DNA from: Candidatus Rokubacteria bacterium CSP1-6
Lineage (GTDB): Bacteria; Methylomirabilota; Methylomirabilia; Rokubacteriales; CSP1-6
Assembly (NCBI GenBank): GCA_001443385.1
Contig: LDXP01000003.1
Location: 33,755-97,754 of the forward strand
Length of the DNA stretch: 64,000 nucleotides
Direction of reading: 5' to 3'
Shown here piece after piece: positions 2,819-53,926 of this stretch. The first letter of the stretch is position 1. The number at the start of each line of letters is the position of its first letter. The notes under the pieces were generated by a model. The model was not told the DNA's origin. It did no database searches and saw only the letters and a list, made by a program, of their open reading frames with translations. Both the position numbers and the translations under genes were made by a program.

Positions 2819-3937
2819 TCAAGGCCTGGTGATGATTCCGCCCCCGATGACCTGCTCCCCGTCGTAGAACACCACCGACTGCCCCGGGGTCACGGCGCGC
2901 TGGGGCTCGTCGAAGCGGACCTCGACGCGCCGCTCCCCAGGCTCCGCCTGGGGGCCCGCCAGCGGCCGGACCTCTGCCGGCGCCGGCGCGTGGCTGTGGC
3001 GGATCTTGGCCGCCACCCGGATCGCCTCGCCTGGCCAGTCGAACGGGATGAAATTGGTCTCGGCAGCCACGAGGCGCTCGCTCTCGAGGCCCTCGGCCTC
3101 GCCCACGACGACGGCGTTCCGCTCCGGGTCCAGCGCGAGCACGTAGAGGGGCCGCTCGGAGGTCACGCCGAGGCCGCGCCGCTGGCCCACGGTGTAGGCC
3201 GCGAGCCCCCGATGCTCTCCCAGTCGCCGCCCCGCGCGATCCACGATCGGGCCGGGACGGAACGCCTCGGGAATCCGGCGCCGCAGGAACCCCCGGTAGT
3301 CGTCGTCGGGAATGAAGCAGATCTCCATGCTCTCGGGCTTGTCCGCCACGGGAAGCCCGAGGGCGCGGGCCTTGGCGCGCACCTCCTCCTTGGTCAGCGC
3401 CCCGACGGGGAATTCAGCCGCGGCGAGTTGCGCCTGGGTCAGCGGCCAGAGAAAGTCCGACTGGTCCTTCCTGGGATCCCGCCCGCGCAACAAGAGGTAC
3501 CGGCCGGTCCGCGGATCTCGCTCCAGGCGCGCATAGTGGCCCGTGGCGACCGCCGTCGCCTCCCAGGCGCGCGCCCGGCGGAGCAGCGACCCGAACTTGA
3601 CCTCCTGGTTGCAGACGACACAGGGCACCGGCGTCCGCCCCGCCCGGTACTCGCGGGCGAAGTTGTCGATGACCGTGCGGTCGAACTCGCGCTCCGAGTT
3701 GAGGAGGTAATACGGAATCCCCAGCCGGCGGGCGACCTGCCGCGCGTCGTCCGCGGTCTGGGGCGAGCAGCAGCTGCCGAAGCGGCCGGGCGCGGCCTCG
3801 GGCTCCTGCCACGGCCACACGCGGAGCGTCACCCCCACGACGTCGTGCCCCTGCTCGACCAGGAGCGCGGCGGCCACCGAGGAATCGACGCCGCCGCTCA
3901 TGCCGACGACGACGCGCGCTGAATGCGACTCCCTCAT
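2819..3937 (-). CDS. mnmA: tRNA-specific 2-thiouridylase
   Basis: PP-loop motif SGGVDSS and the conserved MnmA core; start at the internal M (MRESHSARVVVGMSGGVDSS). ATGA overlap with the parB stop. The 144-codon N-terminal extension in the ORF track is an out-of-frame artefact. Confidence 0.85.
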   Translation of the reverse strand: MRESHSARVVVGMSGGVDSSVAAALLVEQGHDVVGVTLRVWPWQEPEAAPGRFGSCCSPQTADDARQVARRLGIPYYLLNSEREFDRTVIDNFAREYRAGRTPVPCVVCNQEVKFGSLLRRARAWEATAVATGHYARLERDPRTGRYLLLRGRDPRKDQSDFLWPLTQAQLAAAEFPVGALTKEEVRAKARALGLPVADKPESMEICFIPDDDYRGFLRRRIPEAFRPGPIVDRAGRRLGEHRGLAAYTVGQRRGLGVTSERPLYVLALDPERNAVVVGEAEGLESERLVAAETNFIPFDWPGEAIRVAAKIRHSHAPAPAEVRPLAGPQAEPGERRVEVRFDEPQRAVTPGQSVVFYDGEQVIGGGIITRP

Positions 3938-4776
3938 CACGGCTTCAGGGGGCTCCCCAAGATCTGCTCGACCAGCCGCTCGAGCTCTTCGCGCGACGCA
4001 TAGACGATCTCGATGCGGCCGCGGCGCTCGGACCCCACCAGGCGCACGCGCGTCGCCAGGCGCTCGCGGAGCTGATCCTCGAGGGCGGTCAGCTCGGCGG
4101 AGCGGCGCGCCGCCCGCCGCGGGATGTGGCTCCGCTGGACCCCTTCCTCCGTCGTGCGCACCGACCACGAGTGGGCGAGGATCTCCTCTCTGAGCTTCAG
4201 CTGGTCGGCCGCCGAGGTCAGCGAGAGGAGCGCCCGCGCGTGGCCCATGGTGAGCCGTCCGGCTCTGAGATCGTCCTGGATGACCGCCGGGAGCTTGAGG
4301 AGGCGCAGGCAGTTGGCGATCGAGCTCCGGTCCTTCCCCACGCGCCCGGCCAGCTCCTCCTGGGTCCACCCAAACTCGGCCAGCAGGCGCTGGTAGGCTT
4401 CCGCTTCCTCCATGGGGTTGAGATCTTCGCGGAGCAGATTCTCGACGAGGGCCAGCTCGAGGCTCTCGGCGTCCGTCGCCTCCCGGATCACCGCCGGGAC
4501 GCGCTCGAGGCCCGCCAGCTTGGCCGCGCGGAGCCGGCGCTCACCGACAATCAGCTGATAGCCGCTTCCCACCCGCCGCACGACCACCGGCTGGAGGACC
4601 CCGGACTGGCGCATGGACGCGGAGAGATCTTGTAACCCATTAATATTAAAGGATTTTCGTGGCTGGTTGGGGTTTGGACCGATCTCCTCGATGGGGATCT
4701 CGCGGAGGGTCTCCCCTTCCGCCGGGCTCGCGGAAAGTAGCGCGCCGAGTCCTCTCCCCAGCCCCCGCTTAGTCAT
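3937..4776 (-). CDS. parB: Chromosome partitioning protein ParB (Spo0J)
   Basis: ParB-box GERRLRAA with HTH and C-terminal dimerisation region; operonic with parA. Confidence 0.9.
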   Translation of the reverse strand: MTKRGLGRGLGALLSASPAEGETLREIPIEEIGPNPNQPRKSFNINGLQDLSASMRQSGVLQPVVVRRVGSGYQLIVGERRLRAAKLAGLERVPAVIREATDAESLELALVENLLREDLNPMEEAEAYQRLLAEFGWTQEELAGRVGKDRSSIANCLRLLKLPAVIQDDLRAGRLTMGHARALLSLTSAADQLKLREEILAHSWSVRTTEEGVQRSHIPRRAARRSAELTALEDQLRERLATRVRLVGSERRGRIEIVYASREELERLVEQILGSPLKP

Positions 4777-5518
4777 GGGCGAGCACCTCCTTGGTGAGTT
4801 CGAGGTACGCCAGGGCGCCGCTCGAGCGCAGGTCGTAGAGCAGAATGGGCTTGCCGTGGCTCGGCGCCTCCGAGAGCCGGACGTTCCGTGGGATGACGGT
4901 CTGGAAGATCTGGCCGCTGAAGTAGCGGTGAACCTCCGCCTTCACCTGCCCGGCCAGGCTCGTCCGCCCGTCGAACATCGTCAGGACGATGCCTTCCACC
5001 TCCAGCCGCGGATTCAAGCGATCCCTCACGAGACGGACGGTCTTGAGGAGCTGGGCCAACCCCTCGAGGGCGTAGAACTCGCACTGAAGCGGAACCAGGG
5101 CTGAATCCGCGGCGGTGAGGGCGTTAATGGTCAGGAGGCCGAGAGAGGGCGGACAGTCCAGCAGGACATAGTCGAACTTGCCCCGCAGCGGCTCGAGCGC
5201 GTCCTTCAGCTTGGATTCCCTTCCTGGAAGCCCCACCAGCTCCACTTCAGCGCCGACCAGGTCGATATCCGCGGGCACCAGGAGGAGGTTGGGAATGGCC
5301 GTCTCGCGGATCGCCTTCTCCAGAGGCTCCCCACCCAGCAGGACATGGTAGATCGTGGGATAGAGCTCCTCCTTCGACAGGCCGAGTCCCGTGGTGGCAT
5401 TGCCCTGAGGGTCGAGATCCACCAAAAGCGTGGGGCGATCGGCCACGGCGAGCCCCGCGGCGAGATTCACCGCCGTCGTGGTCTTGCCGACTCCCCCCTT
5501 CTGGTTGACCACCGCCAT
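4769..5518 (-). CDS. parA: Chromosome partitioning ATPase ParA (Soj)
   Basis: Deviant Walker A KGGVGKTT; start set at MAVVNQKGG (ATG 5518). The upstream extension in the ORF track covers the parS sites. Confidence 0.9.
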   Translation of the reverse strand: MAVVNQKGGVGKTTTAVNLAAGLAVADRPTLLVDLDPQGNATTGLGLSKEELYPTIYHVLLGGEPLEKAIRETAIPNLLLVPADIDLVGAEVELVGLPGRESKLKDALEPLRGKFDYVLLDCPPSLGLLTINALTAADSALVPLQCEFYALEGLAQLLKTVRLVRDRLNPRLEVEGIVLTMFDGRTSLAGQVKAEVHRYFSGQIFQTVIPRNVRLSEAPSHGKPILLYDLRSSGALAYLELTKEVLAHD

Positions 5519-5549
5519 CACCCGTCCCACCAATCGTCCCCCCCCCTTG

Positions 5550-5565
5550 TGTTTCACGTGGAACA
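5550..5565. promoter_or_regulatory. parS centromere-like site 1 (TGTTTCACGTGGAACA)
   Basis: 15/16 match to the canonical parS palindrome TGTTNCACGTGAAACA; lies in the rsmG-parA intergenic region. Confidence 0.75.
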
Positions 5566-5576
5566 CACTGCGCAAT

Positions 5577-5592
5577 GTTGCACGTGAAACAT
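5577..5592. promoter_or_regulatory. parS centromere-like site 2 (TGTTGCACGTGAAACA)
   Basis: Full match to the parS consensus TGTTNCACGTGAAACA; 27 bp from site 1. Confidence 0.8.
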
Positions 5593-5596
5593 ACCG

Positions 5597-6241
5597 TCAA
5601 CTGGCTTTTTCGACAAGCAAAAATAGTCGCTTACCGACCTTCCCGGGGGCGGGGACGGATTCCCAGCGGTGAGGAGTGTCTCGGGGAAGGGTGGGAAGGG
5701 GTTTTCCCGCAGGGGGACCGGAGGCAATAAAGCGACCACCCGGTGTCAAAAAAGCCATAGCCAACGGGAGGATGGAGGGGAGGGGAGCCACGGCCCTGGT
5801 CACGACGGCGTCATAGGCGCCCCGGAGCCAAGGATCCACTTCGAGCAGGTCCTCAGCACGTCCCGCCAGGACCGACACCCCCTCCAGGGCGAGCTCTCTC
5901 ACCACCGCAGTCAGAAAGGAGGCCCGGCGGCGGCGGGCTTCCACCAACGTGAGCGCGATCTCGGCTTTGACGATCTTCAGTGGGAGACCCGGAATTCCAG
6001 CTCCGGCGCCGAGATCGAGCACCCGTGCCCGCCCGGGCGGCACCCACCGGAGAAAAAGGAGCGAGTCGAGGAAGAGCTTTTCGGCGATGTCGGTCGGTCG
6101 CCTGTAACTCGTCAGGTGCTGCACGCGATTCCACTGGAGCAGAAGCCGGAGGTAGCGGGAGAAGGCGTCCGCCTCGGCAGGGGAGGGAGGACGCTGGAGA
6201 ATCTGGTTGAACCCGCGGGAGAGAACCTCCGGGAAGTCCAT
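5597..6241 (-). CDS. rsmG: 16S rRNA (guanine527-N7)-methyltransferase
   Basis: GidB family SAM-methyltransferase (VLDLGAGAGIPGLPL); conserved position next to parAB; start at MDFPEV. Confidence 0.85.
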   Translation of the reverse strand: MDFPEVLSRGFNQILQRPPSPAEADAFSRYLRLLLQWNRVQHLTSYRRPTDIAEKLFLDSLLFLRWVPPGRARVLDLGAGAGIPGLPLKIVKAEIALTLVEARRRRASFLTAVVRELALEGVSVLAGRAEDLLEVDPWLRGAYDAVVTRAVAPLPSILPLAMAFLTPGGRFIASGPPAGKPLPTLPRDTPHRWESVPAPGKVGKRLFLLVEKAS

Positions 6242-6269
6242 TCGCTCGCGTTCCCCGGAGCCGTGTAAG

Positions 6270-8021
6270 TTAGTGTTTTTGCTGTACTTCCTTGACTGCA
6301 ACTTTCGCTAAGCGGCCCCGCCGATCCATGTAGTACTGCTGGAGGATCTGGAGAAGGTTGGAGACTGTCCAGTAGAGGACGAGCCCGGAGGCGAGGCTCA
6401 GGAACATGAACGTCATGAAAACAGGCATCAGGAGCATGATCTTCGCCTGGCGGGGATCGCCCACCGACGGGCTCATCTTCTGCTGAACGAACATCGAGAG
6501 CCCCATCAGGATCGGGAGCACGTAGGTCGGATCGTACGTGGCGAGGTCGCAGATCCAGAGGCACTGCCCCCCGAGCCACGGCACCCAGCTCGGCAGGGTC
6601 CCCAGATTGATGAACGGCGCGTTCTCCAGCTCCGTCGACACCGTGAGCATCGCGTACAAGGCGAAGAAGATCGGAATCTGGATTACCATGGGCAGGCACC
6701 CGCCCATCGGATTCACCTTGTGCTGCCTGTAGAGCTCCATCGTCTCGCGCTGGAGCCGCTGCGGGTCCTTCTTCTGATACTTCGCCCGCAGCGCGTTGAT
6801 CTGGGGCTGGAGCGCCTGCATGGCCTTCATGGACGCCATGCTCTTGAGGGTCAGCGGGTAGAAAAGGATCTTGGTGATCACGGTCAGGATGATGATCGCA
6901 ACGCCGTAGTTCGGCACGTAGTCGTAGAACCACCGCATCAATCTGAGGAGGGGTACGACGATCCATTCCATCGGCAAGGTGGGGAAGCCCGACCGCGCCC
7001 AGCTCTCCGGGAAGGGGAACCCGCCGAAGTAAACGGCCTTCTCGAGCCCCACCCCGAGCGCCTGCAGGCGCTCGTACTCCATCGGGCCGAGGTACTGGAG
7101 CCACTTGCCTTCCCAGGCTTGGCCTGGCTGCAGCGTGGGCACTACGGCGCGGATGCCGATCTCGGCGCGCTTGGTCGCTCTGCCCTCGCCAGCCGGACCG
7201 TTGGCAAGCGCGCGCTCCAATACGGTGATGCCCGGGCTCCGCGGGATGAGCGCCGTCAGATATAGGCCGTTCACCCCGGTGATCGGGGCCACGCCGCTCT
7301 CGAACCCGATCCACCCGGATCCGGAAAACTCCTTAGCATCCTTGATGTAGACGCGATGCGCCCAGGATTCCCCCGGGGCGAGGCGGACGACACTGATCGG
7401 CCGGGGCCCCCGAAACCCCTCCTGCTCCTTGGGCCACTCCACCGGCGCCACCCAAGTCAGGGTGAGTTCGGCCCCCTGCGCCGCCCTGTGCCGGTTCTCG
7501 ACCCGGATCTCATGCTCGAGTACGTAGCTGTCGATCCGGACCGTCAGCACCTGCGTGATCCGAAGCCCGAACCCGTCCTCGCCGACCATCCGGATCTGGC
7601 CCCGGCGTGTCTCCTGCCGCACGGGCTCTACCGACAACTCGAACGCCACGGGCACCGGCGGAGCTCCGGCCCGGTGGACGGTCAGAGGATCCTGAGCCAC
7701 CAGACCCTTAAGGACCATCGGCTTCTCGCCGCGGAAGTGGAGATTCCATGCCTCCAGCGCCCCTCCCCCACTGGCCACCTCCGCCGAGTAGAGAGGAGTC
7801 TCAAAAGTCACCTTCCGCTCCGGCGGGGCTGGTCTCGGCCGCGGCGAGACAGGGGCGGTCTCGGCCAGCGGGGGTGGGGCCGGGGGCGGCTTGGACTCGG
7901 CCGGGGCTTGAGCGGGCGGGGAGGGGAGCGGCTCGGGAGGAAAGAGCCGGGCCTGGACGAACAGGAAGAGGGCAAAGAGGACCGACGACAGCAGGAGGGC
8001 CAGAATCAGGTTTCTTTCCAT
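6270..8021 (-). CDS. yidC: Membrane protein insertase YidC
   Basis: 583-aa ORF with N-terminal TM, a large periplasmic domain and the conserved C-terminal 5-TM YidC/Oxa1 core; classic rpmH-rnpA-yidD-yidC order. Confidence 0.9.
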
Positions 8022-8254
8022 GTCCTCAACGCCCGCGGCGGAACGGGATCGTACCCTCCCGGATGAAAGGGGTGGCAGCGGACCAGGCGCCGGACCGCCA
8101 GCCAGGATCCGCGGCCCGCGCCGTGCTGGACCACGGCCTCACGCACGTACTCGGAGCACGAGGGGTAAAAGCGGCAGGCACGAGGGAGGAGCGGGGAGAG
8201 GAACCGCTGGTACCCTCGGATGAGCCACGCGACCGCGGCAGCGAGGCGGCTCAC
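8006..8254 (-). CDS. yidD: Membrane protein insertion efficiency factor YidD
   Basis: Conserved YidD sequence (RFYPSCSEY...HP..GG.DPVP); GTGA overlap with the rnpA stop if GTG 8254 is the start. Confidence 0.75.
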
Positions 8255-8613
8255 GCCCCCCCCTGCCGGCACCGCTTGGCCACGGCGTCTAGCCCCTCGC
8301 GCATGTCCTGAAGGATCTCGCCGTACGGGCCCGTGGCCGCGCGCGGCCGGGCCACGACGACCAGCTGCACGCCCTCGGGAAGCCGCCGCCGACTCACCCG
8401 GTACGCCTCCCGGACGCGCCGCCGAGCCCGGTTGCGGCGAGCCGCGCTCCCGATCTGGCGGCTGACCGCGAAGCCGGCTTGACGCCGCCCCGGGGCCGCG
8501 CGCCAGAGGAGCAGCACCGACGGCCGTTCGATCCGCGCGCCCCGCTGGAAGACGGCCTGGAACTCCTCGGCGCCGGTCAGCCGTTCACTCCGCGGAAAGG
8601 CCTCGCCGCCCAC
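8251..8613 (-). CDS. rnpA: Ribonuclease P protein component
   Basis: 120-aa basic protein with the RnpA RNR-like motif; lies between rpmH and yidD. Confidence 0.85.
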
Positions 8614-8626
8614 CGCCGTGTCGTCG

Positions 8627-8761
8627 CTAGACGGTGAGCCGTCTCCGTCCCTTGGCGCGGCGCCGCTTGAGCACCTTCCGCCCGCCGCGCGTCTTCATTC
8701 GCTCGCGAAAGCCGTGCGTCCCCTTGCGCTTGCGGCGATTCGGCTGGTACGTGCGCTTCAT
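8627..8761 (-). CDS. rpmH: 50S ribosomal protein L34
   Basis: Missing from the ORF track (<60 aa). Reverse complement reads [44 protein letters not shown], near-identical to the L34 consensus. Confidence 0.9.
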
Positions 8762-9025
8762 GGGGGCACTCCTCCTCTCCGTCGAAAAACCGATTCAGTC
8801 TACAGACCGCCCCCCGTGAAGTCAAGCCGGCGGCGGAGCCGGGAAAGTGAAGAACGGGGTTGCCTCCTCGCTTTCCGCTGTGCTATGGTAGCACCCGCTT
8901 TTCGCCCCGAGTGTGACGCCCGGCGGTTTTTTCTTTCCGCTCCGACCGGAGCCGACGAGGGTTCGTATTCCGATGGGTTGTCGCCCCGCCGTCCATCACC
9001 CCGCCTCGCTGGCAATTCGATCCCG

Positions 9026-9045
9026 TTATCCACACGTGTGGATAA
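9026..9045. promoter_or_regulatory. Palindromic pair of consensus DnaA boxes (TTATCCACACGTGTGGATAA) upstream of dnaA
   Basis: TTATCCACA at 9026-9034 and TGTGGATAA at 9037-9045, both perfect matches to the DnaA box consensus, ~50 bp before the dnaA start. Confidence 0.7.
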
Positions 9046-9090
9046 CTCTGTGCGTAACTGGGCCCGTCGCCTGTCCTGGAGAATACTTAC

Positions 9091-10410
9091 ATGCTTGAAA
9101 GCCTCTGGACCCGGCTGCTCTCCTCACTCGAGCACAAGATTCCCGAGGCCGCGCTCGACACGTGGGTCCGCTCGAGCCGCTTGATGGCTGTCGAGGGCGA
9201 TCGCCTTCAGATCGCGGCTCCCAATAAGTTCTCGCGCGACTGGCTGGCGGAACACTACCTTCCCGCCCTCGCCGCGGCCGCCCAGGACTGCCTCGGGGGA
9301 AACCCCCAGGTCTCCATCGTGGTGGACGCGACGCCCGCCCCCGCACGGTCGCCCGGCGACGACGCGGCGCTGCCGGCGCCGACCTCCACGGCCTCCGGGC
9401 TCAACCCCCGCTACACGTTCGAGACGTTTGTCGTCGGCTCGTCCAACCAGTTCGCCCAGGCGGCCTGCCAGGCCGTGGCCGAACTGCCCAGCAAGGCCTA
9501 CAACCCGCTCTTCATCTACGGCGGGGTCGGCCTGGGGAAGACCCACCTCCTCCACGCCGTCGGCCATCAGATCACCCGCCTCTTCCCCGGCCTCCATGTG
9601 CTCTACCTCTCCTCGGAGCGCTTCACCAACGACCTCATCAACGCCATCCGCTACGACCGCACCGCCGAGTTCCGCGCCAAGTACCGGACCATCGACCTCC
9701 TCCTGATCGACGACATCCAGTTCATCTCCGGCAAGGAGCGCACGCAGGAGGAGTTCTTCCACACGTTCAACGACCTCTACGACTCCCGCAAGCAGATCGT
9801 CGTGTCCAGTGACAGCACGCCCAAGGAGATCCCGGAGATCGAGGAGCGCCTGCGCTCGCGCTTCGAGTGGGGGCTCATCGCCGACATCCAGCCCCCCGAC
9901 TTCGAGACGCGGGTGGCCATTTTGAAAAAGAAGGCCGGCGTCGAGCGCGTGCGCCTGTCGGACGACGTGGCCTATCTGATTGCCAGCCGCGTCAAGTCCA
10001 ACATCCGCGAACTCGAGGGCTCCCTCACGCGCATGATCGCCTTCTGCGCGCTGACCGGTCGGGAGATGACCCCCGACCTGGCCCAGGATGTCCTCTCCGA
10101 CCTTTGGGGCGAGGATGAGCGGATCATCACCCTCGAACAGATCCAGCGGAAGGTGTCCGACTTCTTCGGCATGAAGCTGTCGGACCTCAAGGCCAAAAAC
10201 CGGACGCGGGCCATTGCCTTCCCGCGCCAGATCGCCATGTACCTCGCCCGCCAGCTCACCACCGCCTCCCTGCTGGAGATCGGCCGCGCGTTCGGCGGGA
10301 AGGATCACACCACCGTCCTACACGCTGTGGATAAGATCACCCTGCTGCTCCAAGAAGACCCCAAACTGCGCAAGACGATCGACACCCTCACCCAGGGAAT
10401 CGCCTCGTGA
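9091..10410 (+). CDS. dnaA: Chromosomal replication initiator protein DnaA
   Basis: AAA+ Walker A GGVGLGKTHLL, the sensor/box VII region, and the C-terminal DNA-binding domain (AIAFPRQIAMYLARQLT...KDHTTVLHA). Confidence 0.95.
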   Translation: MLESLWTRLLSSLEHKIPEAALDTWVRSSRLMAVEGDRLQIAAPNKFSRDWLAEHYLPALAAAAQDCLGGNPQVSIVVDATPAPARSPGDDAALPAPTSTASGLNPRYTFETFVVGSSNQFAQAACQAVAELPSKAYNPLFIYGGVGLGKTHLLHAVGHQITRLFPGLHVLYLSSERFTNDLINAIRYDRTAEFRAKYRTIDLLLIDDIQFISGKERTQEEFFHTFNDLYDSRKQIVVSSDSTPKEIPEIEERLRSRFEWGLIADIQPPDFETRVAILKKKAGVERVRLSDDVAYLIASRVKSNIRELEGSLTRMIAFCALTGREMTPDLAQDVLSDLWGEDERIITLEQIQRKVSDFFGMKLSDLKAKNRTRAIAFPRQIAMYLARQLTTASLLEIGRAFGGKDHTTVLHAVDKITLLLQEDPKLRKTIDTLTQGIAS

Positions 10411-10441
10411 TCCACGCTCATCCCATCCCTGCCCACCGGCG

Positions 10442-10450
10442 TATCCACAG
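10442..10450. promoter_or_regulatory. DnaA-box-like nonamer TATCCACAG
   Basis: 8/9 match to TTATCCACA in the dnaA-dnaN intergenic region. Confidence 0.5.
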
Positions 10451-10532
10451 TCCGCTGGTTCGGCCCGGCCTTTCCCTGCGGGGACTTCGGCCTTCTCCCC
10501 GCCATCCCGCCGGCGAGTACGACTACGACTAC

Positions 10533-10580
10533 TCAGAAGTCTTAATTTCTTTTCTTAAGACTATAAGTTCTCTTTAGAGT
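10533..10580. other. Candidate oriC DNA-unwinding element: AT-rich tract with a perfect 8-bp inverted repeat AGTCTTAA/TTAAGACT
   Basis: About 50 bp at >70% AT inside a ~68% GC genome, sited between dnaA and dnaN next to a DnaA box; the dnaA-dnaN intergenic origin is common in many phyla. Confidence 0.55.
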
Positions 10581-10591
10581 TGGAGGATCCC

Positions 10592-11686
10592 ATGGAGGTT
10601 CAGCTCGAGCGCGATGCCTTTTCCAAAGGGCTCCAGATGGTCCAGAACATCGTCGAACCCCGGCAGACCCTGCCCATCCTGGCGAATGTCCTTCTCGAGA
10701 CGGAGGGAGACGTGCTCCGCGTGACCGCGACCGACCTCGCGGTAGGAGCGCGGGTGTCGGTGCCGGCCAAGGTGGCCTCGCCAGGCGCTATCACGCTCTC
10801 GGCGCGAAAGCTCGCCGAGATCGTGAAGGAGTTGCCCGTGGCGCCGCTGTCCCTCAAGGTCCAGGAAAATGCCTGGGTCGTTCTCCGCTGTGGCGGGGTC
10901 TCCTACAAGCTGGTGGGGCTGGCGGCGGAGGATTTTCCGGCGGTGGTCCCCACGGCGTCGCCGGCCTGGGTGTCGCTGGACGGAAAGGCGCTGAAAGAGA
11001 TGCTGGGGCGAACGGCATTCGCGATGTCCCACGACGAGAGCCGCTACGCGTTGAACGGGGTGCTCCTGTCCGTGCAGCCCGGGCGCCTCCGGGTTGTCGC
11101 CACCGATGGGCATCGGTTGGCGCTTGCCTCGCGGGCGCTCCCGAACGGAGCGGGGAGCGCCACGGGCATCGTGCCCCGGAAGGCGGTTCAGGAGGTGATG
11201 CGGGTGCTGGGAGCCGGCGAGGAGGTGCAGGTCGCCCTGGTGGAGAATCAATTCATCCTCAGGATGCCGAACTTCCTCCTCGTGGCGCGGCTGATCGAGG
11301 GGCAGTTCCCGAACTACGAGCAGGTCGTGCCGAAGGGGCACCCCTGCCGGCTCGCGGTCTCGCGGTCCGCCCTGGCCGCGGCGCTGCGGCGGGTGTCCGT
11401 GCTCTCCGAGGAGCGCACCAAGCCCGTCAAGTTGCTCCTCTCACCGGGCTCCCTGAAGCTGTCCGCCTCCAACCCCGAACTGGGCGAGGCGGAGGAGAGC
11501 CTGGCGGTGGACTACTCGGGCGAGGAGTTGGCGATCGGGTTCAACTCCCGCTATGTGCTGGACGCCCTCGGCGCCATCGAAACGGACGAGGTGGTCGCCG
11601 AGCTCAAGGACGGATTGAGCCCGGGAATCATCCGAAGCTTGGAGGGCGAGGAGTACTTCTGTGTTATAATGCCTATGAGGATTTAG
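10592..11686 (+). CDS. dnaN: DNA polymerase III beta sliding clamp
   Basis: Three-domain beta-clamp sequence; ATG at 10592 is preceded by a GGAGG RBS (10582-10586). Confidence 0.92.
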   Translation: MEVQLERDAFSKGLQMVQNIVEPRQTLPILANVLLETEGDVLRVTATDLAVGARVSVPAKVASPGAITLSARKLAEIVKELPVAPLSLKVQENAWVVLRCGGVSYKLVGLAAEDFPAVVPTASPAWVSLDGKALKEMLGRTAFAMSHDESRYALNGVLLSVQPGRLRVVATDGHRLALASRALPNGAGSATGIVPRKAVQEVMRVLGAGEEVQVALVENQFILRMPNFLLVARLIEGQFPNYEQVVPKGHPCRLAVSRSALAAALRRVSVLSEERTKPVKLLLSPGSLKLSASNPELGEAEESLAVDYSGEELAIGFNSRYVLDALGAIETDEVVAELKDGLSPGIIRSLEGEEYFCVIMPMRI

Positions 11687-11746
11687 TATCGAATGAGAGC
11701 AGGATAGGGTGGAGGTCCGATGGGTCACGCCACGTCGCTTCCCTGA

Positions 11747-14215
<2,469 letters not shown>

Positions 14216-14231
14216 TCTTTCGCCCGCCCAC

Positions 14232-16670
14232 ATGTCCCCCAACGAGCGCGTCGTTCCCGTCCCGATCGAAGAGGAAATGCGCAAGTCCTACCTGGCCTAC
14301 GCGATGTCCGTCATCGTCGGGCGGGCGCTCCCGGACATCCGCGACGGGCTCAAGCCTGTGCACCGCCGTGTGCTGTACACGATGCAAAGCCTCGGGCTGG
14401 CCTGGAACCGGGCGTACAAGAAATCGGCCAAGGTCGTGGGCGAGGTGCTCGGGAAGTATCACCCTCACGGCGACGCGCCGGTCTACGAAGCGCTGGTGCG
14501 GATGGTCCAGGAATTCTCCTTGCGCTACCCGCTGGTGGACGGTCAGGGCAACTACGGGTCGATCGACGGGGATCCGCCCGCGGCCTATCGCTACACGGAG
14601 GCGCGGCTGGCCAAGATCGCCCACGAGATGCTCGCGGACATCGACAAGGGGACGGTGGACTTCGTCCCGAACTTCGACGAGTCGGAGCAGGAGCCGACGG
14701 TTCTCCCGACCAGACTCCCCAACCTCCTGGTCAACGGCTCGTCCGGGATCGCGGTGGGGATGGCGACCAACATCCCGCCCCACAACCTCTCGGAGGTCGT
14801 GGACGGGCTCGTCATGCTCATCGACAACCCTGCCGCCACGGTGGACGACCTTATGGCGGTCATCAAGGGCCCCGACTTTCCCACGCGGGGGTACATCTAC
14901 GGGACGGCCGGGATCCGCGAGGCGTTCACCACGGGGCGCGGGACGATCACGATGCGGGCCAAGGCCCACGCCGAGAAGATGCGCGGCGGGCGCGAAGCGA
15001 TCATCGTGACCGAGCTGCCCTATCAGGTGAACAAGGCCACGCTGATCGAGAAGATCGCCGAGCTCGCCCGCGAGAAGAAGATCGAGGGGATTTCGGAGAT
15101 CCGCGACGAATCCAGCCGCGAGGGGATCCGGATCGTGCTCGAGGTGGGGCGGGGCGAGATCCCGCAGATCCTCCTGAACCAGCTCCACAAGCACACCCAG
15201 ATGCAGTCCACCTTCGGGGTCATCATGCTCGCCCTCGTGGACCGCCGGCCCCAGGTGGTGACCCTCAAGGAGATGCTGGAGGCCTTTATCCGCTTCCGGC
15301 GCGAGGTGGTGACCCGGCGGACGCGGTTCGACCTGGCTCGGGCCGAGGAGCGCGCGCACATTCTCGAGGGGCTCCGCAAGGCGGTGGAGCAGCTGGACCT
15401 GGTCATCCGGCTGATCCGCGGGGCGGAGAACCCCGAGGCCGCGAAGGACGCCCTCGTGCGGCGGCTCGAGCTGACGGAGGTCCAGGCCAAGGCGATCCTC
15501 GACATGCGCCTCCAGCGCCTGACCCAGCTCGAGCGCCACAAGATCGTGGAGGAGCACGAGCAGACGCTGGCGCTGATCGCCGATCTCAAGGACATCCTGG
15601 CCTCCGAGGGGCGGCTGATGCGGATCATCAAGGAGGAATTGCTGACCCTCAAGGCCGAGTACGGCGACGAGCGACGCACTGAGATCCTGACGGAAACCAC
15701 TGAACTCACCATTGAGGATTTGCTGGCCGACGAGGAGATGGTCGTCACGATCACGCGATCGGGCTACATCAAGCGCACGCACGTGGACCTCTACCGGAGC
15801 CAGCGGCGCGGCGGCAAAGGCGTGACGGGGATGGAGACCAAGGAGGAGGACGTTGTCCAGGACCTCTTCATCGCCACGACGCACTCCTACCTCCTCTTCT
15901 TCACGTCGCAGGGCAAGGTCCACTGGCTCAAGGTCCACGAGATCCCCGAGGGCGGCCGGCAGGCGAAGGGCAAGGCCATGGCGAACCTCCTGGCGCTGGC
16001 CGAGACCGAGCGGGTGGCGGCGGTGCTGCCGATTCGGGAGTTCGAGGCGGGCGGGTTCATCCTGTTCGCCACCAAGCAGGGGAAGGTGAAGAAGACGGAA
16101 CTGGAGGCGTACTCGCACCCCCGCGCGGGCGGGATCCAGGCCATCGCGCTCGAGGAGGGCGATGAGGTGATGGCCGCCCGGCGGACCGACGGCCAGCGCG
16201 AGGTTGTGATGTCCACCAAGAAGGGGATGATCATCCGGTTCTCCGAGGAGGAAGCGCGGCCCATGGGTCGCGTGGCGGCCGGGGTCCGGGGGATCGACGT
16301 CGAGGACGGCGACCAGGTGATCGCCGCCGAGGTTGTGCTGGAGGGGGCCGCCCTCCTCACGGTGACCGAGCGCGGCTACGGCAAGCAGACCCCGCTGGAG
16401 GAGTACCGCCTGCAGGGACGGGCCGGGAAGGGGATCATCGACATCAAGACCGGCGGGCGGAACGGCGACGTCGTGGGGGTGGTCCAGGCCCGGCCCGGCG
16501 ACGACATCCTGGTGGTCACGACCAAGGGGAAGATCATCCGGATGCACGCCCCCGACGTGTCGTCCCAGGGCCGGAACACGTGGGGCGTGCGCGTGATCGA
16601 CCTGGACCCCGACGATCAGGTGGGGAGCGTGGCGCGGGTCGACGCCGAGCAGACCGAGCCCGAATCATAG
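14232..16670 (+). CDS. gyrA: DNA gyrase subunit A
   Basis: 812-aa ORF with the active-site Tyr region (AAMRYTEARL-like [10 protein letters not shown]) and the C-terminal beta-pinwheel GyrA-box repeats. Confidence 0.95.
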
Positions 16671-18020
<1,350 letters not shown>

Positions 18021-18026
18021 ACGCCG

Positions 18027-18113
18027 GAGGGGTGGCCGAGCGGTTGAAGGCGCCGGTCTTGAAAACCGGAATCCCGCAAGGGATCGGGGGTTCGAATCCC
18101 TCCCCCTCCGCCA
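18027..18113 (+). tRNA. tRNA-Ser (anticodon TGA)
   Basis: Cloverleaf with GGAGGGG acceptor, anticodon loop CTTGAAA, long variable arm, T-loop TTCGAAT, and an encoded CCA. Confidence 0.85.
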
Positions 18114-18116
18114 AAT

Positions 18117-18190
18117 CCTCGGAGGGGGGCTCCGCCCCCCTTCCGACGCCCCGCGGCAAAGCCGGCGCGCGAAGCACGCGCGCTTTCGCC
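18117..18190 (+). repeat. Intergenic G/C-rich hairpin repeat, copy 1
   Basis: The 30-nt core CCTCGGAGGGGGGCTCCGCCCCCCTTCCGA is identical to the core at 48886 and to the reverse complement of 62491-62519; followed by the GGCAAAGCC hairpin motif. Confidence 0.8.
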
Positions 18191-18230
18191 AGAGCCCGGA
18201 ATGCCTTATAGTGGGTAGGCTTGACGCTTG

Positions 18231-18324
18231 GGAGAGGTGGCCGAGTTGGCCGAAGGCAGCCGCCTGCTAAGCGGTTACAGGGGCAAAACCTCTGTCCCGG
18301 GTTCGAATCCCGGCCTCTCCGCCA
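18231..18324 (+). tRNA. tRNA-Ser (anticodon GCT)
   Basis: Acceptor GGAGAGG, anticodon loop CTGCTAA, long variable arm, T-loop TTCGAAT, encoded CCA. Confidence 0.85.
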
Positions 18325-18326
18325 TC

Positions 18327-18403
18327 GCGCCCATAGCTCAGTTGGATAGAGCGTCGGACTACGAATCCGAAGGCCGCAGGTTCAAGTCCTGCTGGGCGCA
18401 CCA
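18327..18403 (+). tRNA. tRNA-Arg (anticodon ACG)
   Basis: GCGCCCATAGCTCAGTTGGATAGAGC... with anticodon loop CTACGAA and encoded CCA; 2 nt after tRNA-Ser(GCT). Confidence 0.9.
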
Positions 18404-18407
18404 TTTC

Positions 18408-18440
18408 GACCCCCCGGGAGGGCGCCACTCTCGGGGGGTC
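18408..18440 (+). terminator. GC-rich hairpin after the tRNA pair (GACCCCCCGGGAG...CTCTCGGGGGGTC)
   Basis: A 12-13-bp near-perfect inverted repeat right after tRNA-Arg; no U-tract, so the terminator or processing role is inferred. Confidence 0.4.
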
Positions 18441-18480
18441 CTTCGCTTCGCTGCCTGACCCCATCGTCCGGGTGTGCTAG

Positions 18481-18960
<480 letters not shown>

Positions 18961-18962
18961 TG

Positions 18963-19058
18963 CGGAGGGGTGGCCGAGCCCGGTTGAAGGCGTCCGACTC
19001 GAAATCGGATAGGGGCCCAGAAGGTCCCTCGGGGGTTCAAATCCTCTCCCCTCCGCCA
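18963..19058 (+). tRNA. tRNA-Ser (anticodon CGA)
   Basis: Acceptor GGAGGGG, anticodon loop CTCGAAA, long variable arm, T-loop TTCAAAT, encoded CCA. Confidence 0.8.
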
Positions 19059-19061
19059 TAT

Positions 19062-19154
19062 GGAGAGGTGACCGAGCGGCCGAAGGTGCGGCATTGGAAA
19101 TGCCGTGCACGGGTAAACCCTGTGCCGTGGGTTCGAATCCCACCCTCTCCGCCA
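19062..19154 (+). tRNA. tRNA-Ser (anticodon GGA)
   Basis: Acceptor GGAGAGG, anticodon loop TTGGAAA, long variable arm, T-loop TTCGAAT, encoded CCA. Confidence 0.85.
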
Positions 19155-19171
19155 TTTGGGACATACAGCGT

Positions 19172-19441
19172 GGCCGTGCTAGACGGGGAGGTAGCGGTGC
19201 CCTGTAGCCCGCAATCCGCTACAGCGGGGTTGAATCCCCTCTCGAGGCTTCTTCGCGTTGAATGAGCTTCACGGGGCGGCGTTGAGGGTTGGGCCCCACG
19301 CAACGAGAATCGTCGAACCCCGCCAGGCCCGGAAGGGAGCAACGGTAAGGCGACCCTCTCGTGTGCCGTGGGAGTACCTGACCGGAGCAGGTTCCGTGGA
19401 GAGATCGCAGGGCGAGCGAGGTCGATTGAGGGTGCACGGCC
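19172..19441 (+). ncRNA. ffs: Signal recognition particle RNA, large (Bacillus-type) form with an Alu domain
   Basis: 5' GGCCGTGCTAGACGGGGAGGTAGCGGTGCCCTGTAGCC...GGGGTTGAATCCCC resembles the Alu-domain start of B. subtilis scRNA. Domain IV motif CCAGGCCCGGAAGGGAGCAAC...GTGTGCCGTGGGAG is present. The 3' end GGTGCACGGCC pairs with the 5' end. Sits immediately upstream of dnaX, as in many bacteria. Confidence 0.75.
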
Positions 19442-19460
19442 ATTTATCTCCGAGGGCGAC

Positions 19461-21151
19461 ATGAGCTACCAGGTGCTGGCGAGGAAGTGGCGGCCCCAGA
19501 CCTTCGACGCGGTGGTCGGCCAGGAGCCGATCACGCGGACGCTCAGGAATGCGCTGGCGGCGAACCGGATCGCCCACGCCTATCTCTTCGCGGGACCGCG
19601 CGGGATCGGGAAGACCACCACGGCGCGCCTCCTCGCCAAGGCCCTGCTGTGCACCGCGCGCCGGGACCCGGAGCCCTGCGGCGCCTGTCCGGCGTGCCGG
19701 GAACTCGTCCTTGGGACGCTGGTGGATGTCATCGAGATCGACGGCGCCTCGAACCGCGGCATCGACGACATCCGCACCCTCCGGGAGAACGTCCGGTACG
19801 CGCCGGCCCGGGGGCGGTACAAGGTCTACATCATCGACGAGGCCCATCAGCTCACCAAGGAAGCGTTCAACGCGCTCCTCAAGACGCTGGAGGAGCCCCC
19901 GGCCCACGTCGTCTTTGTCCTGGCGACGACGCAGCCCCACGAGATGCCCCTGACGGTGCTCTCGCGCTGCCAGCGGTTCGACTTCAAACCGATCCCGCCC
20001 GAGCTGCTGTCGGCGAGCCTGGAGCGGATTTTGAGGGAGGAGAAGGTCGAGTTCGACCCCGCCGCGCTGCCGCTCCTGGTTCGCAGCGCCGAAGGGAGCC
20101 TGAGGGATGCCCTGTCGCTGCTCGACACCGCGCTGGCCTACGGCGGCGGCCGGCTCGCCGCCGACTCGCTGGCGCACCTCCTGGGCGCCAGCGCCCCGGC
20201 CCAGGTGCGGGCCTTCGTCGGCGCGCTCGTGGTGCGGGACGGGGCGGGGGCACTGGAGGCGATCGATCGGGCGGCGCAGGAGGGAGAGGATCTGGCCGTG
20301 CTCTGCCGGGAGACCGTGGAGGCGTTGCGCCGGCTCCTGCTCTTGAAGGTCGCGCCGCGCCTGTCCCCCCCGGACCTGACGGCGGCCGAGATCGAGGAGT
20401 TCCGGCAGAGGCCGCCCGGCTCAGCGAAGACGAGCTGCTCTTCGTCCTGAAGGGTTTCGTCGAGGCCGAGGGGGAGGTCCGGCGTTCCCCGCATCCCCGC
20501 GTGGAGCTGGAGATCGCCGCCGTTAAAGCGGTCCGGCGCCCCGTCGCCGCGGCGATCGAGAGCGTGCTGGCCAAGGTCGAGGAAGTCGAAGAGCGCCTCC
20601 GGCAGATGGCGTTTTTAGGCGGCGCCGCGCCGGCCGCGCCGTCGGGCCCGGTGCAGGAAAGCCTGATTCCCCCCGAGTCCGGCCCGCGTCCCGCGTCTCC
20701 CGGGCCGCGAAGCGCAGCACTCCCGCCGCCCGCGCCGCGCCCGCCCGCGAGCCCGTCGGCGAAACTTCCGGCCTCCGCCGCTGCGCCCGCGGCCCAGGGG
20801 CTGGACGCGGGCTGGCGGCAGGTCGTCGAGGAGGTCCTCCGACGGAAGCCCTCGCTGGGGGCGGTGCTCGAGCAGTCCACGCCCGTCACGCTCGCCGAGG
20901 GGAAGCTGACCGTGGCGCTCGTCGGCAATCACTTCCATAAGGAGCTCGTCGCCGATCGGGCCAACCACGAGCTCGTCACCCAGGCGGTTCAGCGCCACAT
21001 CCCCGGCGCCAAGCGGATCGAGATCAGCATGGGGGCAGCGCAGGAGGCCGGCGCCCAGGGGCATCCCGCCGTGCAGGCGGCGCTGTCGGTCTTCCAGGGC
21101 GAGGTGGTGGCGGTGCGGGCGAGGACCGAGGAAGGAGGGGAAGGCCAGTGA
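19461..21151 (+). CDS. dnaX: DNA polymerase III subunit tau/gamma; full length needs a -1 frame change near 20405-20420
   Basis: N-terminal AAA+ clamp-loader (GPRGIGKTT, DEAHQL) in the frame of 19461 up to ...TAAEIEEFRQ; it continues as ...AARLSEDELLFVLKGF... plus the conserved tau C-terminus only in the -1 frame (ORF 19487..21151). The zero frame stops at 20450. Confidence 0.85.
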
Positions 21152-21462
21152 AGGGCTTCGGGAACATGATGAAGGAGGCGCAGAAGCTCCAGGCACAGCT
21201 GGAGGCCCTCCGCGAGGAAGTGGCCAAGAAGAAGGTCGAGGCCACGGCGGGCGGCGGCATGGTCACGGTCGAGGCCAGCGGCAATCAAGAGATCGTGTCG
21301 ATCAAGATCGATCGCGAGGTGATCAACCCCGAGGACGCCCAGATGCTGGAGGATCTGGTTCTCGCCGCGTGCAACGAGGCCCTCAGGAAGTCCCGCGAGC
21401 TGGTGCAGGCCGAGATGGGCAAGCTCACGGGCGGCCTCCGGATTCCCGGTCTCACTCCGTAG
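21148..21462 (+). CDS. ybaB: Nucleoid-associated protein YbaB/EbfC
   Basis: 104-aa conserved YbaB sequence; GTGA overlap with the dnaX stop; GGAGGGG RBS. Confidence 0.88.
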   Translation: MKGFGNMMKEAQKLQAQLEALREEVAKKKVEATAGGGMVTVEASGNQEIVSIKIDREVINPEDAQMLEDLVLAACNEALRKSRELVQAEMGKLTGGLRIPGLTP

Positions 21463-21471
21463 AGGGGTGGA

Positions 21472-22074
21472 GTGGCGTATTACCCCGAACCCGTTGCCCG
21501 CCTGATCGAGGCCTTCCAGAAGCTGCCGGGCATCGGCCCCAAGACGGCCCAGCGACTCACCTTCTTCCTCCTCAAGCGCCCCCCCGAGGAGGTCACCGCC
21601 CTCAGCGAAGCGCTCGCCCGCGTCAGGGCCCAGATCGTCAACTGCTCGGTCTGCTTCAACGTGACCGAGGAGGATCCCTGCCGGATCTGCACGGATCCCT
21701 CGAGGGACGGGAAGAGCCTGTGCGTGGTGGAGGAGCCCAACGATCTCCTCGCCCTCGAGCGCACCGGGCAGTACCGGGGCCGCTACCACGTGCTCCTGGG
21801 CGCGCTGTCGCCGCTCGACGGCATCGGCCCGGAGGACCTCCGCGTGCGGGAGCTGCTGGCCCGGCTCGAGACTCAGCCGGTGGACGAGGTGATCCTCGCC
21901 ACCAACCCCAACGTGGAGGGCGAGGCGACCGCGATCTACCTGGCGAAGCTCCTGAAGCCGCTCGCGGGCCGGGTGACCCGGATCGCGCGCGGCCTCCCTG
22001 TGGGGGGGGACCTCGAGTACGCCGACGAGGTTACCCTGGGCAAGTCGCTGGAGGGGCGCAAAGAGATGGGGTAA
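21472..22074 (+). CDS. recR: Recombination protein RecR
   Basis: HhH (LPGIGPKTAQRL), C4 zinc finger (CSVCFNVTEEDPCRIC) and Toprim domain. Confidence 0.92.
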   Translation: MAYYPEPVARLIEAFQKLPGIGPKTAQRLTFFLLKRPPEEVTALSEALARVRAQIVNCSVCFNVTEEDPCRICTDPSRDGKSLCVVEEPNDLLALERTGQYRGRYHVLLGALSPLDGIGPEDLRVRELLARLETQPVDEVILATNPNVEGEATAIYLAKLLKPLAGRVTRIARGLPVGGDLEYADEVTLGKSLEGRKEMG

Positions 22075-22140
22075 GGCGAAGCGAGATCGAGTAAAATAGC
22101 CATGTTCCCCGGTAGCTCAACCGGTAGAGCAGGTGGCTGT

Positions 22141-22700
22141 AAGGAGGGTGAACAGGTGGCCGGTGGGCGGACATACGCTGATCGCCGCGAGTATCTCATC
22201 AAGGCCGTCCAGAAACGGCGTAAGGAGGTGCGCCGGAAGGCGCTTGTTTACAAGGGCGGCCGTTGTCAGAAGTGCGGTTATGATCGGTGTATGGAAGCGT
22301 TGGAGTTCCACCATCTGAACTCCTCGCGTAAGGATTTTGGGATCTCCAGTCAAGGGCATACCCGCAGCTGGAACAAGATCCGCGAGGAGTTAGAGAAGTG
22401 CGCGCTCCTTTGCGCCAACTGCCATCGAGAAGTTCACGCCGGACTGCAGCTTCCACAGGAAACTGTGGCTGTAACATCGGGTGAATTCAGGGAAGCCTAC
22501 CCCGGAGTCGTCGCGATTTCGGCACGGTAATCCTGAGCGAAGCCTGCCGAAGGGCCAGCGCGTAGGCAGGAACGTGCAGAGACTAGAGGCTGAGGAGCCC
22601 ATCCAATAAAGCCTCGCAAGCGCCCGACACCCTCCCTGGATCCGATGATCGAGGTGGGTGAAGAGATAGTCCGAGCCCAGTAGAAATGCTGGGGCACTCG
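22141..22700 (+). mobile_element. Group I intron (~560 nt) in the tRNA anticodon loop, carrying an HNH endonuclease ORF
   Basis: Core element R (GTGCAGAGACTAGA, 22574-22587) and S (AAGAGATAGTCC, 22661-22672) form P7. A Q-like AATCCTGAGC lies at ~22528. The intron ends in G (22700); the 5' exon ends in U. Confidence 0.75.
22156..22530 (+). CDS. HNH homing endonuclease (intron-encoded)
   Basis: Motifs CQKCGYDRC...EFHHL...N...CALLCANCHREVH (zinc-finger HNH). GTG 22156 lies 8 nt after GGAGG. The longer ATG at 22102 would overlap the tRNA 5' exon. Confidence 0.75.
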   Translation: MAGGRTYADRREYLIKAVQKRRKEVRRKALVYKGGRCQKCGYDRCMEALEFHHLNSSRKDFGISSQGHTRSWNKIREELEKCALLCANCHREVHAGLQLPQETVAVTSGEFREAYPGVVAISAR

Positions 22701-22740
22701 TAACCACAAGGTTGCAGGTTCGAGTCCTGCCCGGGGAGCC

Positions 22741-22781
22741 ATAAAACAAAAACGGCCGTCGGAGGTGACTCCGCCGGCCGT
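22741..22781. terminator. Bidirectional hairpin terminator (ACGGCCGTCGGAG-GTGA-CTCCGCCGGCCGT) with an A/T-rich flank
   Basis: A 13-bp stem; on the minus strand it is followed by UUUUUGUUUUAU, terminating the convergent minus-strand gene, and it also follows the tRNA 3' end. Confidence 0.6.
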
Positions 22782-51900: not shown

Positions 51901-52279
51901 CCGGCGGCTCCGTCCCGGCCGGGAAGCGCCCGACGACCGTCGCGACCTTCTCCCTGACGTCGTTTGCGGCTTCCTGGACACTTCGCTCCAAGACAAACGT
52001 GACGAAGACCTGCGATTGGCCCTCGATGGTGGTCGAGCGGAGCTCGTCGAGGCCGCTGATCGTGTTGACGACTTCCTCGATGGGCTTGGTGATCTGGCTC
52101 TCGATCTCCTCGGGGCTCGCCCCCGGCAGCCGGGTCGTGATCGTGATGGTGGGGAGATCGACCTTGGGGAAAATGTCCACGCCCAGCTGGATGAAGGAGG
52201 CCGCCCCCAGGACGACGAAGGCGGTGATCAGCATCGTGGTGAAGACCGGGCGGCGGACGAAGACTTCGAGAAAACTCAT
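48968..52279 (-). CDS. RND multidrug efflux transporter (AcrB/HAE1 family)
   Basis: 12-TM RND sequence of 1103 aa starting MSFLEVFVRRPVF (ATG 52279). The 1462-aa track ORF runs out-of-frame across the acrA-like gene. Confidence 0.9.
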   Translation of the reverse strand: MSFLEVFVRRPVFTTMLITAFVVLGAASFIQLGVDIFPKVDLPTITITTRLPGASPEEIESQITKPIEEVVNTISGLDELRSTTIEGQSQVFVTFVLERSVQEAANDVREKVATVVGRFPAGTEPPVIEKFDPDSAPVMALVVSGQRSAREITEIADKRIKRQLETVKDVGAITLVGDRKREIQVLVDPHKLTAFGLSIQQVKDALLRQNVEIPGGRVTEGGREEGLRTLGRIESPAAFNDLIVADFKGGPVHIRDIGTLVDGEEEARTLSRLNGQNAVSLLIRKQSGTNTVAVVDAVKKKLAEVQKGLPPDIRFEVVRDLSRFIKRSFHEVQDHLLLGGLLASLIVAVFIGNLLWWETAAIGVIVAAVGAAFLQGNPQLLLQVTGLAILATMIFFVAVRKLRPAFVAALAIPCSIIATFTAMRIAGFTLNNLTMLGLALSTGIVIDDAIIVLENIFRHTEEEGRSPFDAAIAGTREIALAVTATTLSLVVIFLPVAFMGGLVGKFWNSFGLTTTFAIIVSLVVAFTLTPMLAARILSARKAEDTARTSKETAFYRAMEQWYEAALAWCLGHRLPVIGGALLILVGGFYLLAKSPVEFVVDDDMSEFEVVAEAPPGSSLERTTEIARALEGELRKIPEVRTLFTTIGVRGQYQSNVTDISLYVGLTHLSERKRTQDEIKQDARRRLAVFPGLRISAQQINLIGGGGFRQTPFNLILRGPDLQQLDGHARAVIRTLGSKPGFVDLDTAQTQRQPELQVLIDRQRASDLGVRVDGIASALRTLVGGEKAGFYREAGEQYDVRIRLQEPFRKDASVIADLAAPGAGGQLVKLSNVTTLAPGMSPGQIEHYAQERSITIISNLYQKPLGTALAEAYAVVQELKMPSEYGIVTLGRGKLLAEAMQNFLIAFVLSLAFIYIVLAAQFESFIHPITIMVSMFLSIPFGLLTLTVLYQLGVRNASLNIYSIMGVFLLMGVVKKNAILQVDYTNVLRERGLERFEAQMQADRARLRPILMTTLAIIAGMLPVALGRGDGAASRASLATVVVGGQALCLLVTLLVTPVIYSMFDDLRGLRVFSRIRFPRWKAALVARWQWVNGRTANGRRPMA

Positions 52280-52281
52280 AC

Positions 52282-53403: not shown

Positions 53404-53858
53404 TCCTCGCCCCGCGCGGCGGAGAGGAGGCGCTCCAGGCCGCGGATCACGTCCTTGCGGTCGGCGGGGGTGAGGCGCTGCAGCACCCGGGCGAGCCCTT
53501 CCACCTGGAGCTGCTCCAGCCTCCGGGCGAGGCGCTCGCCCTCGGGCGTGAGGAGAAGCCGGACGTGGCGGTGGTCGCGCGGGTCCTCCCCCCGGCGGAG
53601 GAAGCCCTTGGACTCCAGCCGGTCCGCGACCTGGGAGACGGCGGGGAGCGTGATACCGAAGCTCCGGGCCACGTCGCTCATGAGCGTCCCGCCGTGCTTG
53701 GCGACGTGGAAGAGCACCTGAGCCTGGGAGTAGTTGAGGTCCAGCTCCAGCGCCTGCTTCCAGAGGATCTGGCGGAAGGTGGTGGACAGGAGGTCAGTGA
53801 GCAGCTCCACCAGGTGGCGGCTGGTGTCGGTCAGGTCGTCGTGCACGGGGCCCCCCAA
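53400..53858 (-). CDS. MarR family transcriptional regulator
   Basis: Winged-HTH MarR sequence; overlaps the MFP gene start, so probably the efflux regulator. Confidence 0.8.
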   Translation of the reverse strand: MGGPVHDDLTDTSRHLVELLTDLLSTTFRQILWKQALELDLNYSQAQVLFHVAKHGGTLMSDVARSFGITLPAVSQVADRLESKGFLRRGEDPRDHRHVRLLLTPEGERLARRLEQLQVEGLARVLQRLTPADRKDVIRGLERLLSAARGEE

Positions 53859-53926
53859 GGTTCACGTAGTTAATCATCTTAATCTTTGGCCGTCAAGTCG
53901 TTGAACATGCCGTAAAATATGGGATC

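Follow-up and report, generated by a model that had tools for sequence, protein, structure and literature searches.

In Escherichia coli, the zero frame of dnaX encodes tau, and gamma arises from a programmed -1 ribosomal frameshift at A_AAA_AAG, stimulated by a stable stem-loop that follows the heptamer and by an SD-like element some 10 nt before it. The E. coli shift site is located at approximately residue 430, after domain III. A class of 'reversed' dnaX genes, in which tau is the product that needs a -1 event, comprises 17 genes from 12 genera, including Chlorobium and Chloroherpeton; poly-A runs of 7-10 are present in 12/17, and the cluster is conserved across the 12 genera (Antonov et al. 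2013). In these reversed genes the break follows domain III, and the zero-frame stop is positioned directly past the shift site (Antonov et al. 2013; Atkins et al. 2016). The dnaX gene of Thermus thermophilus uses transcriptional slippage on an A9 run, a process that needs about nine A or T residues (Antonov et al. 2013; Atkins et al. 2016).

Here we describe a dnaX gene that is split between two reading frames in a 64,000-nucleotide stretch of DNA from Candidatus Rokubacteria bacterium CSP1-6 (the window). The locus is best treated as a broken annotation of an ordinary DnaX family member, and it adds nothing new on the making of tau and gamma.

Reading frames and domain content of the split dnaX

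The zero frame of dnaX opens at ATG 19461 and closes at a TGA stop at 20448-20450, as seen in the ORF list and the translation. Its protein reads ...TAAEIEEFRQ (in fuller form DLTAAEIEEFRQ) and then passes into the tail RPPGSAKTSCSSS. The conserved continuation (EAARLSEDELLFVLKGFVEAEGE / AARLSEDELLFVLKGFVEAEGE) lies in the -1 frame, which ends at 21151, and in this respect the ORF list and translation bear out a preliminary description made from the sequence. The gene is made up of the following parts.

19461-20408, + strand: dnaX 5' segment, codons 1-316, with the AAA+ ATPase module, the lid and the first half of domain III (ORF list, translation, Pfam PF13177, PF22608 and PF12169)
20409-20450, + strand: out-of-frame zero-frame tail with the stop TGA at 20448-20450 (ORF list, translation)
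20408-21151, + strand: dnaX 3' segment in the -1 frame, with the rest of domain III, a Pro/Ala-rich linker and the tau C-terminal domain, and the stop TGA at 21149-21151 (ORF list, PF20964)

The Pfam match to PF12169 in the first ORF covers profile positions 3-77 of 143 (26.6 bits), while PF20964 is detected in the second ORF with an E value of 1.7e-5 and 25.2 bits, slightly below its cut-off of 26.2 bits. When the two ORFs are joined, the PF12169 match grows to profile positions 3-129 of 143 and 45.9 bits. PF13177, PF22608 and PF12169 all score above their cut-offs in the repaired protein, and PF20964 falls just short (25.0 bits against the 26.2-bit cut-off). The repaired protein is also colinear with E. 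coli gamma/tau (1jr3, 1xxi), with residues 1-358 aligned on residues 1-357 (phmmer, E = 1.6e-94). In domain content and colinearity with solved structures, the repaired product is a DnaX (tau/gamma) clamp-loader subunit, with its AAA+ module and lid followed by domain III and the C-terminal domain of tau.

The break falls at residue 316, about 40 residues short of the end of the domain III collar, and the truncation of PF12169 at profile position 77 of 143 agrees with the earlier view that it lies inside domain III. The accompanying proposal, that the zero frame gives a gamma-like product, does not stand, because E. coli gamma keeps a distal portion of domain III that is absent here; the 329-residue product would be a crippled fragment and no equivalent of gamma. 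Judged by their domains, neither ORF alone could be expected to supply a working clamp-loader subunit, and dnaX is essential. In the public annotation of Candidatus Rokubacteria bacterium CSP1-6, the 5' part of the gene is entered as KRT75258.1 (329 aa, 'gamma/tau') and the 3' part as KRT75259.1 (216 aa, 'hypothetical protein XU13_C0003G0069').

A single C is missing relative to close relatives

The junction was compared with seven independently assembled relatives (L001-L005 and the two NCBI MAGs L086 and L087), whose local identity to the window ranges from 91.5 to 99.3% over 141 nt around the junction. An extra base is present in 7/7 of them, at one site.

20408-20409, + strand: missing-base site, CAG-C-AG in the relatives and CAG-AG in the window (pairwise alignment, per-indel list against L001-L005, eight-sequence alignment including L086 and L087)

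CGG CAG CAG GCC in the relatives corresponds to CGG CAG AG GCC in the window, the gap falling between 20408 and 20409; against L001, the junction alignment has one gap column in 154 (CGGCAGCAGGCC against CGGCAG-AGGCC). The lesion is not in a homopolymer, and the nearest run of at least five bases is a C7 at 20365-20371, 37 nt upstream. The indel had previously been assigned to a GC run; it is instead the loss of a single C from CAGCAG. A repair by an inserted G, which would give Q-E, was considered and ruled out, as the closest relatives show that a C is missing, which gives Q-Q. Close strains differ in the two codons at the lesion: CAGCAG is replaced by GCCGAG in L086 (CGG GCC GAG GCC at the junction), and at the protein level the variants QQ, AQ, AE, TR, SQ and SR are observed.

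By blastn, identity to the window is 99.59% for L004 (13.4 kb aligned), 99.19% for L001 (2.7 kb aligned) and 94-96% for L002, L003 and L005. Both L001 and L004 have an uninterrupted 563-aa dnaX in which the junction differs from that of the window solely by one added C. Relatives with an intact single-frame dnaX that is identical elsewhere, which the preliminary description regarded as evidence against recoding, are thus found in L004 and L001. A 9-nt in-frame length difference from L003 is present in the Pro/Ala-rich tau linker, in the 20636 region.

Protein and metagenome comparisons gave the same picture of the junction. The best homologue (P0001) is a single-frame protein of 563 aa that is 99% identical and reads ...EEFRQQAARLSEDELL, and the best 120 protein homologues are all single-frame (120/120), with lengths of 518-607 aa. 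In the 90%-identity cluster, every listed junction-spanning member reads through as ...EEFR[QA][QE]AARLSEDEL, and the only exceptions are KRT75258.1 and KRT75259.1, the source record of the window itself. The tail RPPGSAKTSCSSS is carried by no homologue examined, and it is an artefact of the missing base. A DNA pattern that allows both versions (CAG N{0,1} AGG in a 34/35-nt context) matched four metagenome contigs, and the 35-nt intact form was present in 4/4. In a peptide-pattern scan of genome contigs with the repaired protein, the closest among the matches listed was 59% identical and thus uninformative on the junction. The truncated 329-aa product had no exact match in an index of contigs.

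With the C restored, dnaX differs from that of L004 at 10 codons, five on each side of the break, of which 10 are synonymous and 0 nonsynonymous, and the repaired DnaX is identical in amino acids to the 563-aa DnaX of L004. The five differences in the 3' segment are all synonymous in the -1 frame. Signs of pseudogene decay, either further lesions or nonsynonymous changes, were absent from the repaired gene in the comparison with L004. Because the 3' half has been under purifying selection in the -1 frame until the present, the lesion must be extremely recent, unless it is not biological at all.

Search for recoding signals

A genuine frameshift could in principle be compensated by recoding, either through a ribosomal -1 shift at a C_CCC_CCG heptamer or through RNA polymerase slippage on the C7 run. 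The gene would then be a 'reversed' dnaX, yielding full-length tau in which 13 conserved residues, DLTAAEIEEFRQQ, are replaced by the out-of-frame patch GPDGGRDRGVPAE (shifted peptide ...LSPPGPDGGR..., native peptide ...LSPPDLTAAEIEEFR...).

20366-20372, + strand: C_CCC_CCG heptamer, in the C7 run at 20365-20371, Ser-Pro-Pro codons (heptamer/homopolymer scan)

No other X_XXY_YYZ heptamer occurs anywhere in the zero frame of the 5' ORF, and this one is positioned 36 nt upstream of the lesion. In E. coli, C_CC.C_CC.G has been listed as a motif at which -1 shifting exceeds 0.10% in the absence of stimulators (Sharma et al. 2014). Recoding could also draw on the GAGGAG found 8-13 nt upstream of the lesion and on the precedent of reversed dnaX in 17 genomes. 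However, both motifs are ordinary codons that are unchanged in all intact relatives: C_CCC_CCG is retained in 7/7 intact-frame relatives, and GAGGAG, which encodes Glu-Glu, is likewise the same in them. Nothing able to slip is present at the junction, where the interval 20380-20450 contains no X_XXY_YYZ heptamer, X_XXN tetramer or homopolymer; the scan thereby confirms the earlier remark that a canonical slippery heptamer is lacking there. No A/T run of 7-10 occurs at the frame change, the C7 being the only run in a homopolymer scan of 20300-20460. The 92 nt downstream fold with -37.3 kcal/mol, compared with a shuffle mean of -40.1 (z = +0.75), and so show no stable structure.

The break is also not conserved, being present in 0/7 relatives by DNA, 0/120 best homologues and 0/4 pattern matches, and it is absent even at 99.6% identity. 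In the reversed dnaX genes already described, the shift relies on poly-A runs of 7-10 after domain III, whereas the break here is within domain III, and the Gly/Pro-rich patch GPDGGRDRGVPAE would sit in a helical segment that is conserved. Recoding and transcriptional slippage, which the preliminary description had kept open, thus find no support in slip motif, conservation or stimulatory structure. We consider compensation of a genuine frameshift by recoding very improbable, and the split in dnaX is almost certainly not programmed frameshifting. Scarcely credible is a scenario in which the deletion has become fixed in the CSP1-6 population and a few ribosomes shifting -1 at C_CCC_CCG provide full-length tau with the 13-residue patch. 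Were it true, it would represent a newly arisen 'saviour' frameshift that rescues an essential replication gene within 0.4% divergence of an intact ancestor.

Genomic neighbourhood and assembly quality

The dnaX gene is positioned in a block (19174-22074) that has the standard bacterial arrangement in the replication-origin neighbourhood. Besides the genes given below, dnaN, gyrB, gyrA and serS are found in this neighbourhood (tblastn; Pfam labels of L087 orthologues).

3937-5596, - strand: parA/parB (Pfam)
9058-10410: dnaA
19174-19439, + strand: large bacterial SRP RNA, immediately upstream of dnaX (Rfam RF01854, 185.8 bits)
21148-21462, + strand: ybaB, with its start overlapping the dnaX stop (GTGA) (ORF list, PF02575 on the L001, L086 and L087 orthologues, single-frame tblastn)
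21472-22074, + strand: recR (ORF list, KRT75261.1 RecR, single-frame tblastn)

The gene order of the origin neighbourhood (3937-18020) is the same as in L087. Directly upstream of the SRP RNA, at 18026-19154 on the + strand, four tRNA-Ser genes (TGA, GCT, CGA, GGA) and one tRNA-Arg(ACG) surround a tadA-like deaminase gene (18481-18960). Farther along the window, at 48968-53861 on the - strand, a MarR-family regulator, an HlyD-type membrane-fusion protein and an AcrB-type RND transporter are arranged in tandem with abutting or overlapping ORFs, as in an ordinary efflux operon.

Downstream of recR, a tRNA gene at 22106-22744 (+ strand) contains a 560-nt group I intron (22141-22700), the core of which (22390-22693) matches Rfam RF00028 with 75.5 bits. 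Splicing after U22140 and G22700 is predicted to give a 76-nt tRNA-Asn(GUU) (ARAGORN); the gene is uncalled on the unspliced window. The 5' part of the intron (22142-22470, + strand) contains an HNH-like ORF (...CQKCGYDRC...EFHHLN...CANCHREVH) with a Pfam HNH match of E = 7.6e-4 and 20.0 bits, just below the 21.4-bit cut-off. L002, L003 and L005 are without exactly this HNH-like stretch and retain the intron core at 74-89% identity, and L004 has the stretch. This distribution looks like a presence/absence polymorphism of a putative homing-endonuclease ORF.

The integrity of the assembly around dnaX was assessed with the genes of L087. Fifteen have a counterpart in the window (approximately 10.6-33 kb); 13 match over their full length and two over most of it (residues 4-364 of 375 and 1-83 of 95), each in one frame, and dnaX alone is split, at residue 317 (tblastn). 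Pfam and tblastn replaced a GC3/GC2 frame plot, which cannot separate a frameshift from a same-strand gene boundary. No broken genes were found in the abutting same-strand groups elsewhere in the window, where the 10 ORFs checked by Pfam are distinct, complete genes. The assembly does not appear to be error-prone in general. The other indels relative to L004 over 13.4 kb, at 28304, 28342 and 18405, are all intergenic: a G5 versus G6 directly after a stop codon (28304), a +3 (28342) and a -1 just past the tRNA-Arg (18405). They were considered as a sign of an error-prone assembly and set aside as uninformative, since they lie after a stop codon or between genes.

Origin of the deletion

In all likelihood, dnaX is split because a single base was lost in silico from the assembly or consensus of the CSP1-6 metagenome-assembled genome, as we infer from the comparisons above. 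An assembly indel had been put forward as the leading explanation, and it gains weight from the intact genes of L004 (99.59%) and L001 (99.19%), each with one extra C. The organism itself most likely encodes tau in an ordinary single-frame dnaX of 563 aa, and the C would have dropped out when sequence from a strain-heterogeneous, high-GC population was assembled or its consensus was called. Because the two lesion codons vary among co-occurring strains, they probably mark a spot where a mixed-strain assembly can mis-resolve. BLAST-validated singleton frameshifts have been treated as likely sequencing errors (Antonov et al. 2013). Two observations speak against an assembly error: the deletion is outside the homopolymers in which short-read indel errors are commonest, and the contig is otherwise clean, with no other broken gene found.

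The first of these observations, that the site is no homopolymer and so no classic short-read error site, would also fit a real deletion in the DNA. The assembler would then have followed a non-functional allele of very recent origin, such as a minority variant, a dead-end variant or relic DNA, with neither recoding nor any biological role. Such an allele would be compatible with the high cell-to-cell genomic heterogeneity of Rokubacteria (Becraft et al. 2017), which also fits a mixed-strain assembly, and with a lesion that is the sole defect in a gene otherwise subject to purifying selection (all 10 codon differences from L004 are synonymous), as a pre-sampling mutation would look alike. A real deletion is nevertheless unlikely, because dnaX is essential and an allele without half of the domain III collar could not become common enough in a living population to form its consensus; the allele was, moreover, found in no other assembly examined (7 relatives, 4 pattern matches).

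We favor loss of the C during assembly or consensus calling. For annotation hygiene, KRT75258.1 and KRT75259.1 together would represent one ordinary 563-aa tau, and in MAG mining for recoded dnaX, or in completeness or pseudogenisation scoring, the locus should be counted as a false positive.

Comparison with known dnaX systems

The dnaX of the window shows none of the tested features that define the E. coli-type, Thermus-type and reversed two-ORF classes. The gene is the same as in E. coli, and the frame change is formally -1 in both, but the dependence is reversed, as had been noted earlier. The junction here is without A_AAA_AAG or another slippery motif and without a stable downstream structure, the break is unconserved, and the gene is interrupted at residue 316 inside domain III, in contrast to the E. 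coli site after domain III; on this point, too, the earlier comparison is upheld.

With Thermus thermophilus the locus shares the gene and the involvement of two frames, but the only run of five or more bases near its junction is the C7, which is conserved in the intact relatives. The reversed two-ORF genes are similar in that a -1 break is present in the DNA and the longer product depends on a frame change. They differ in that the dnaX described here is without an A-run at the frame change, its break is a singleton among near-identical relatives, and its zero-frame stop follows 13 codons later, in domain III.

The ordinary single-ORF dnaX, represented by the near-identical Rokubacteria/Methylomirabilota contigs L001 and L004, exhibits the same domain order (PF13177, PF22608, PF12169 and PF20964). 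The ordinary dnaX-ybaB-recR arrangement in these two relatives also has the same neighbours, with the SRP RNA upstream and ybaB and recR downstream. From this ordinary gene, the dnaX of the window differs by the missing base between 20408 and 20409 alone.
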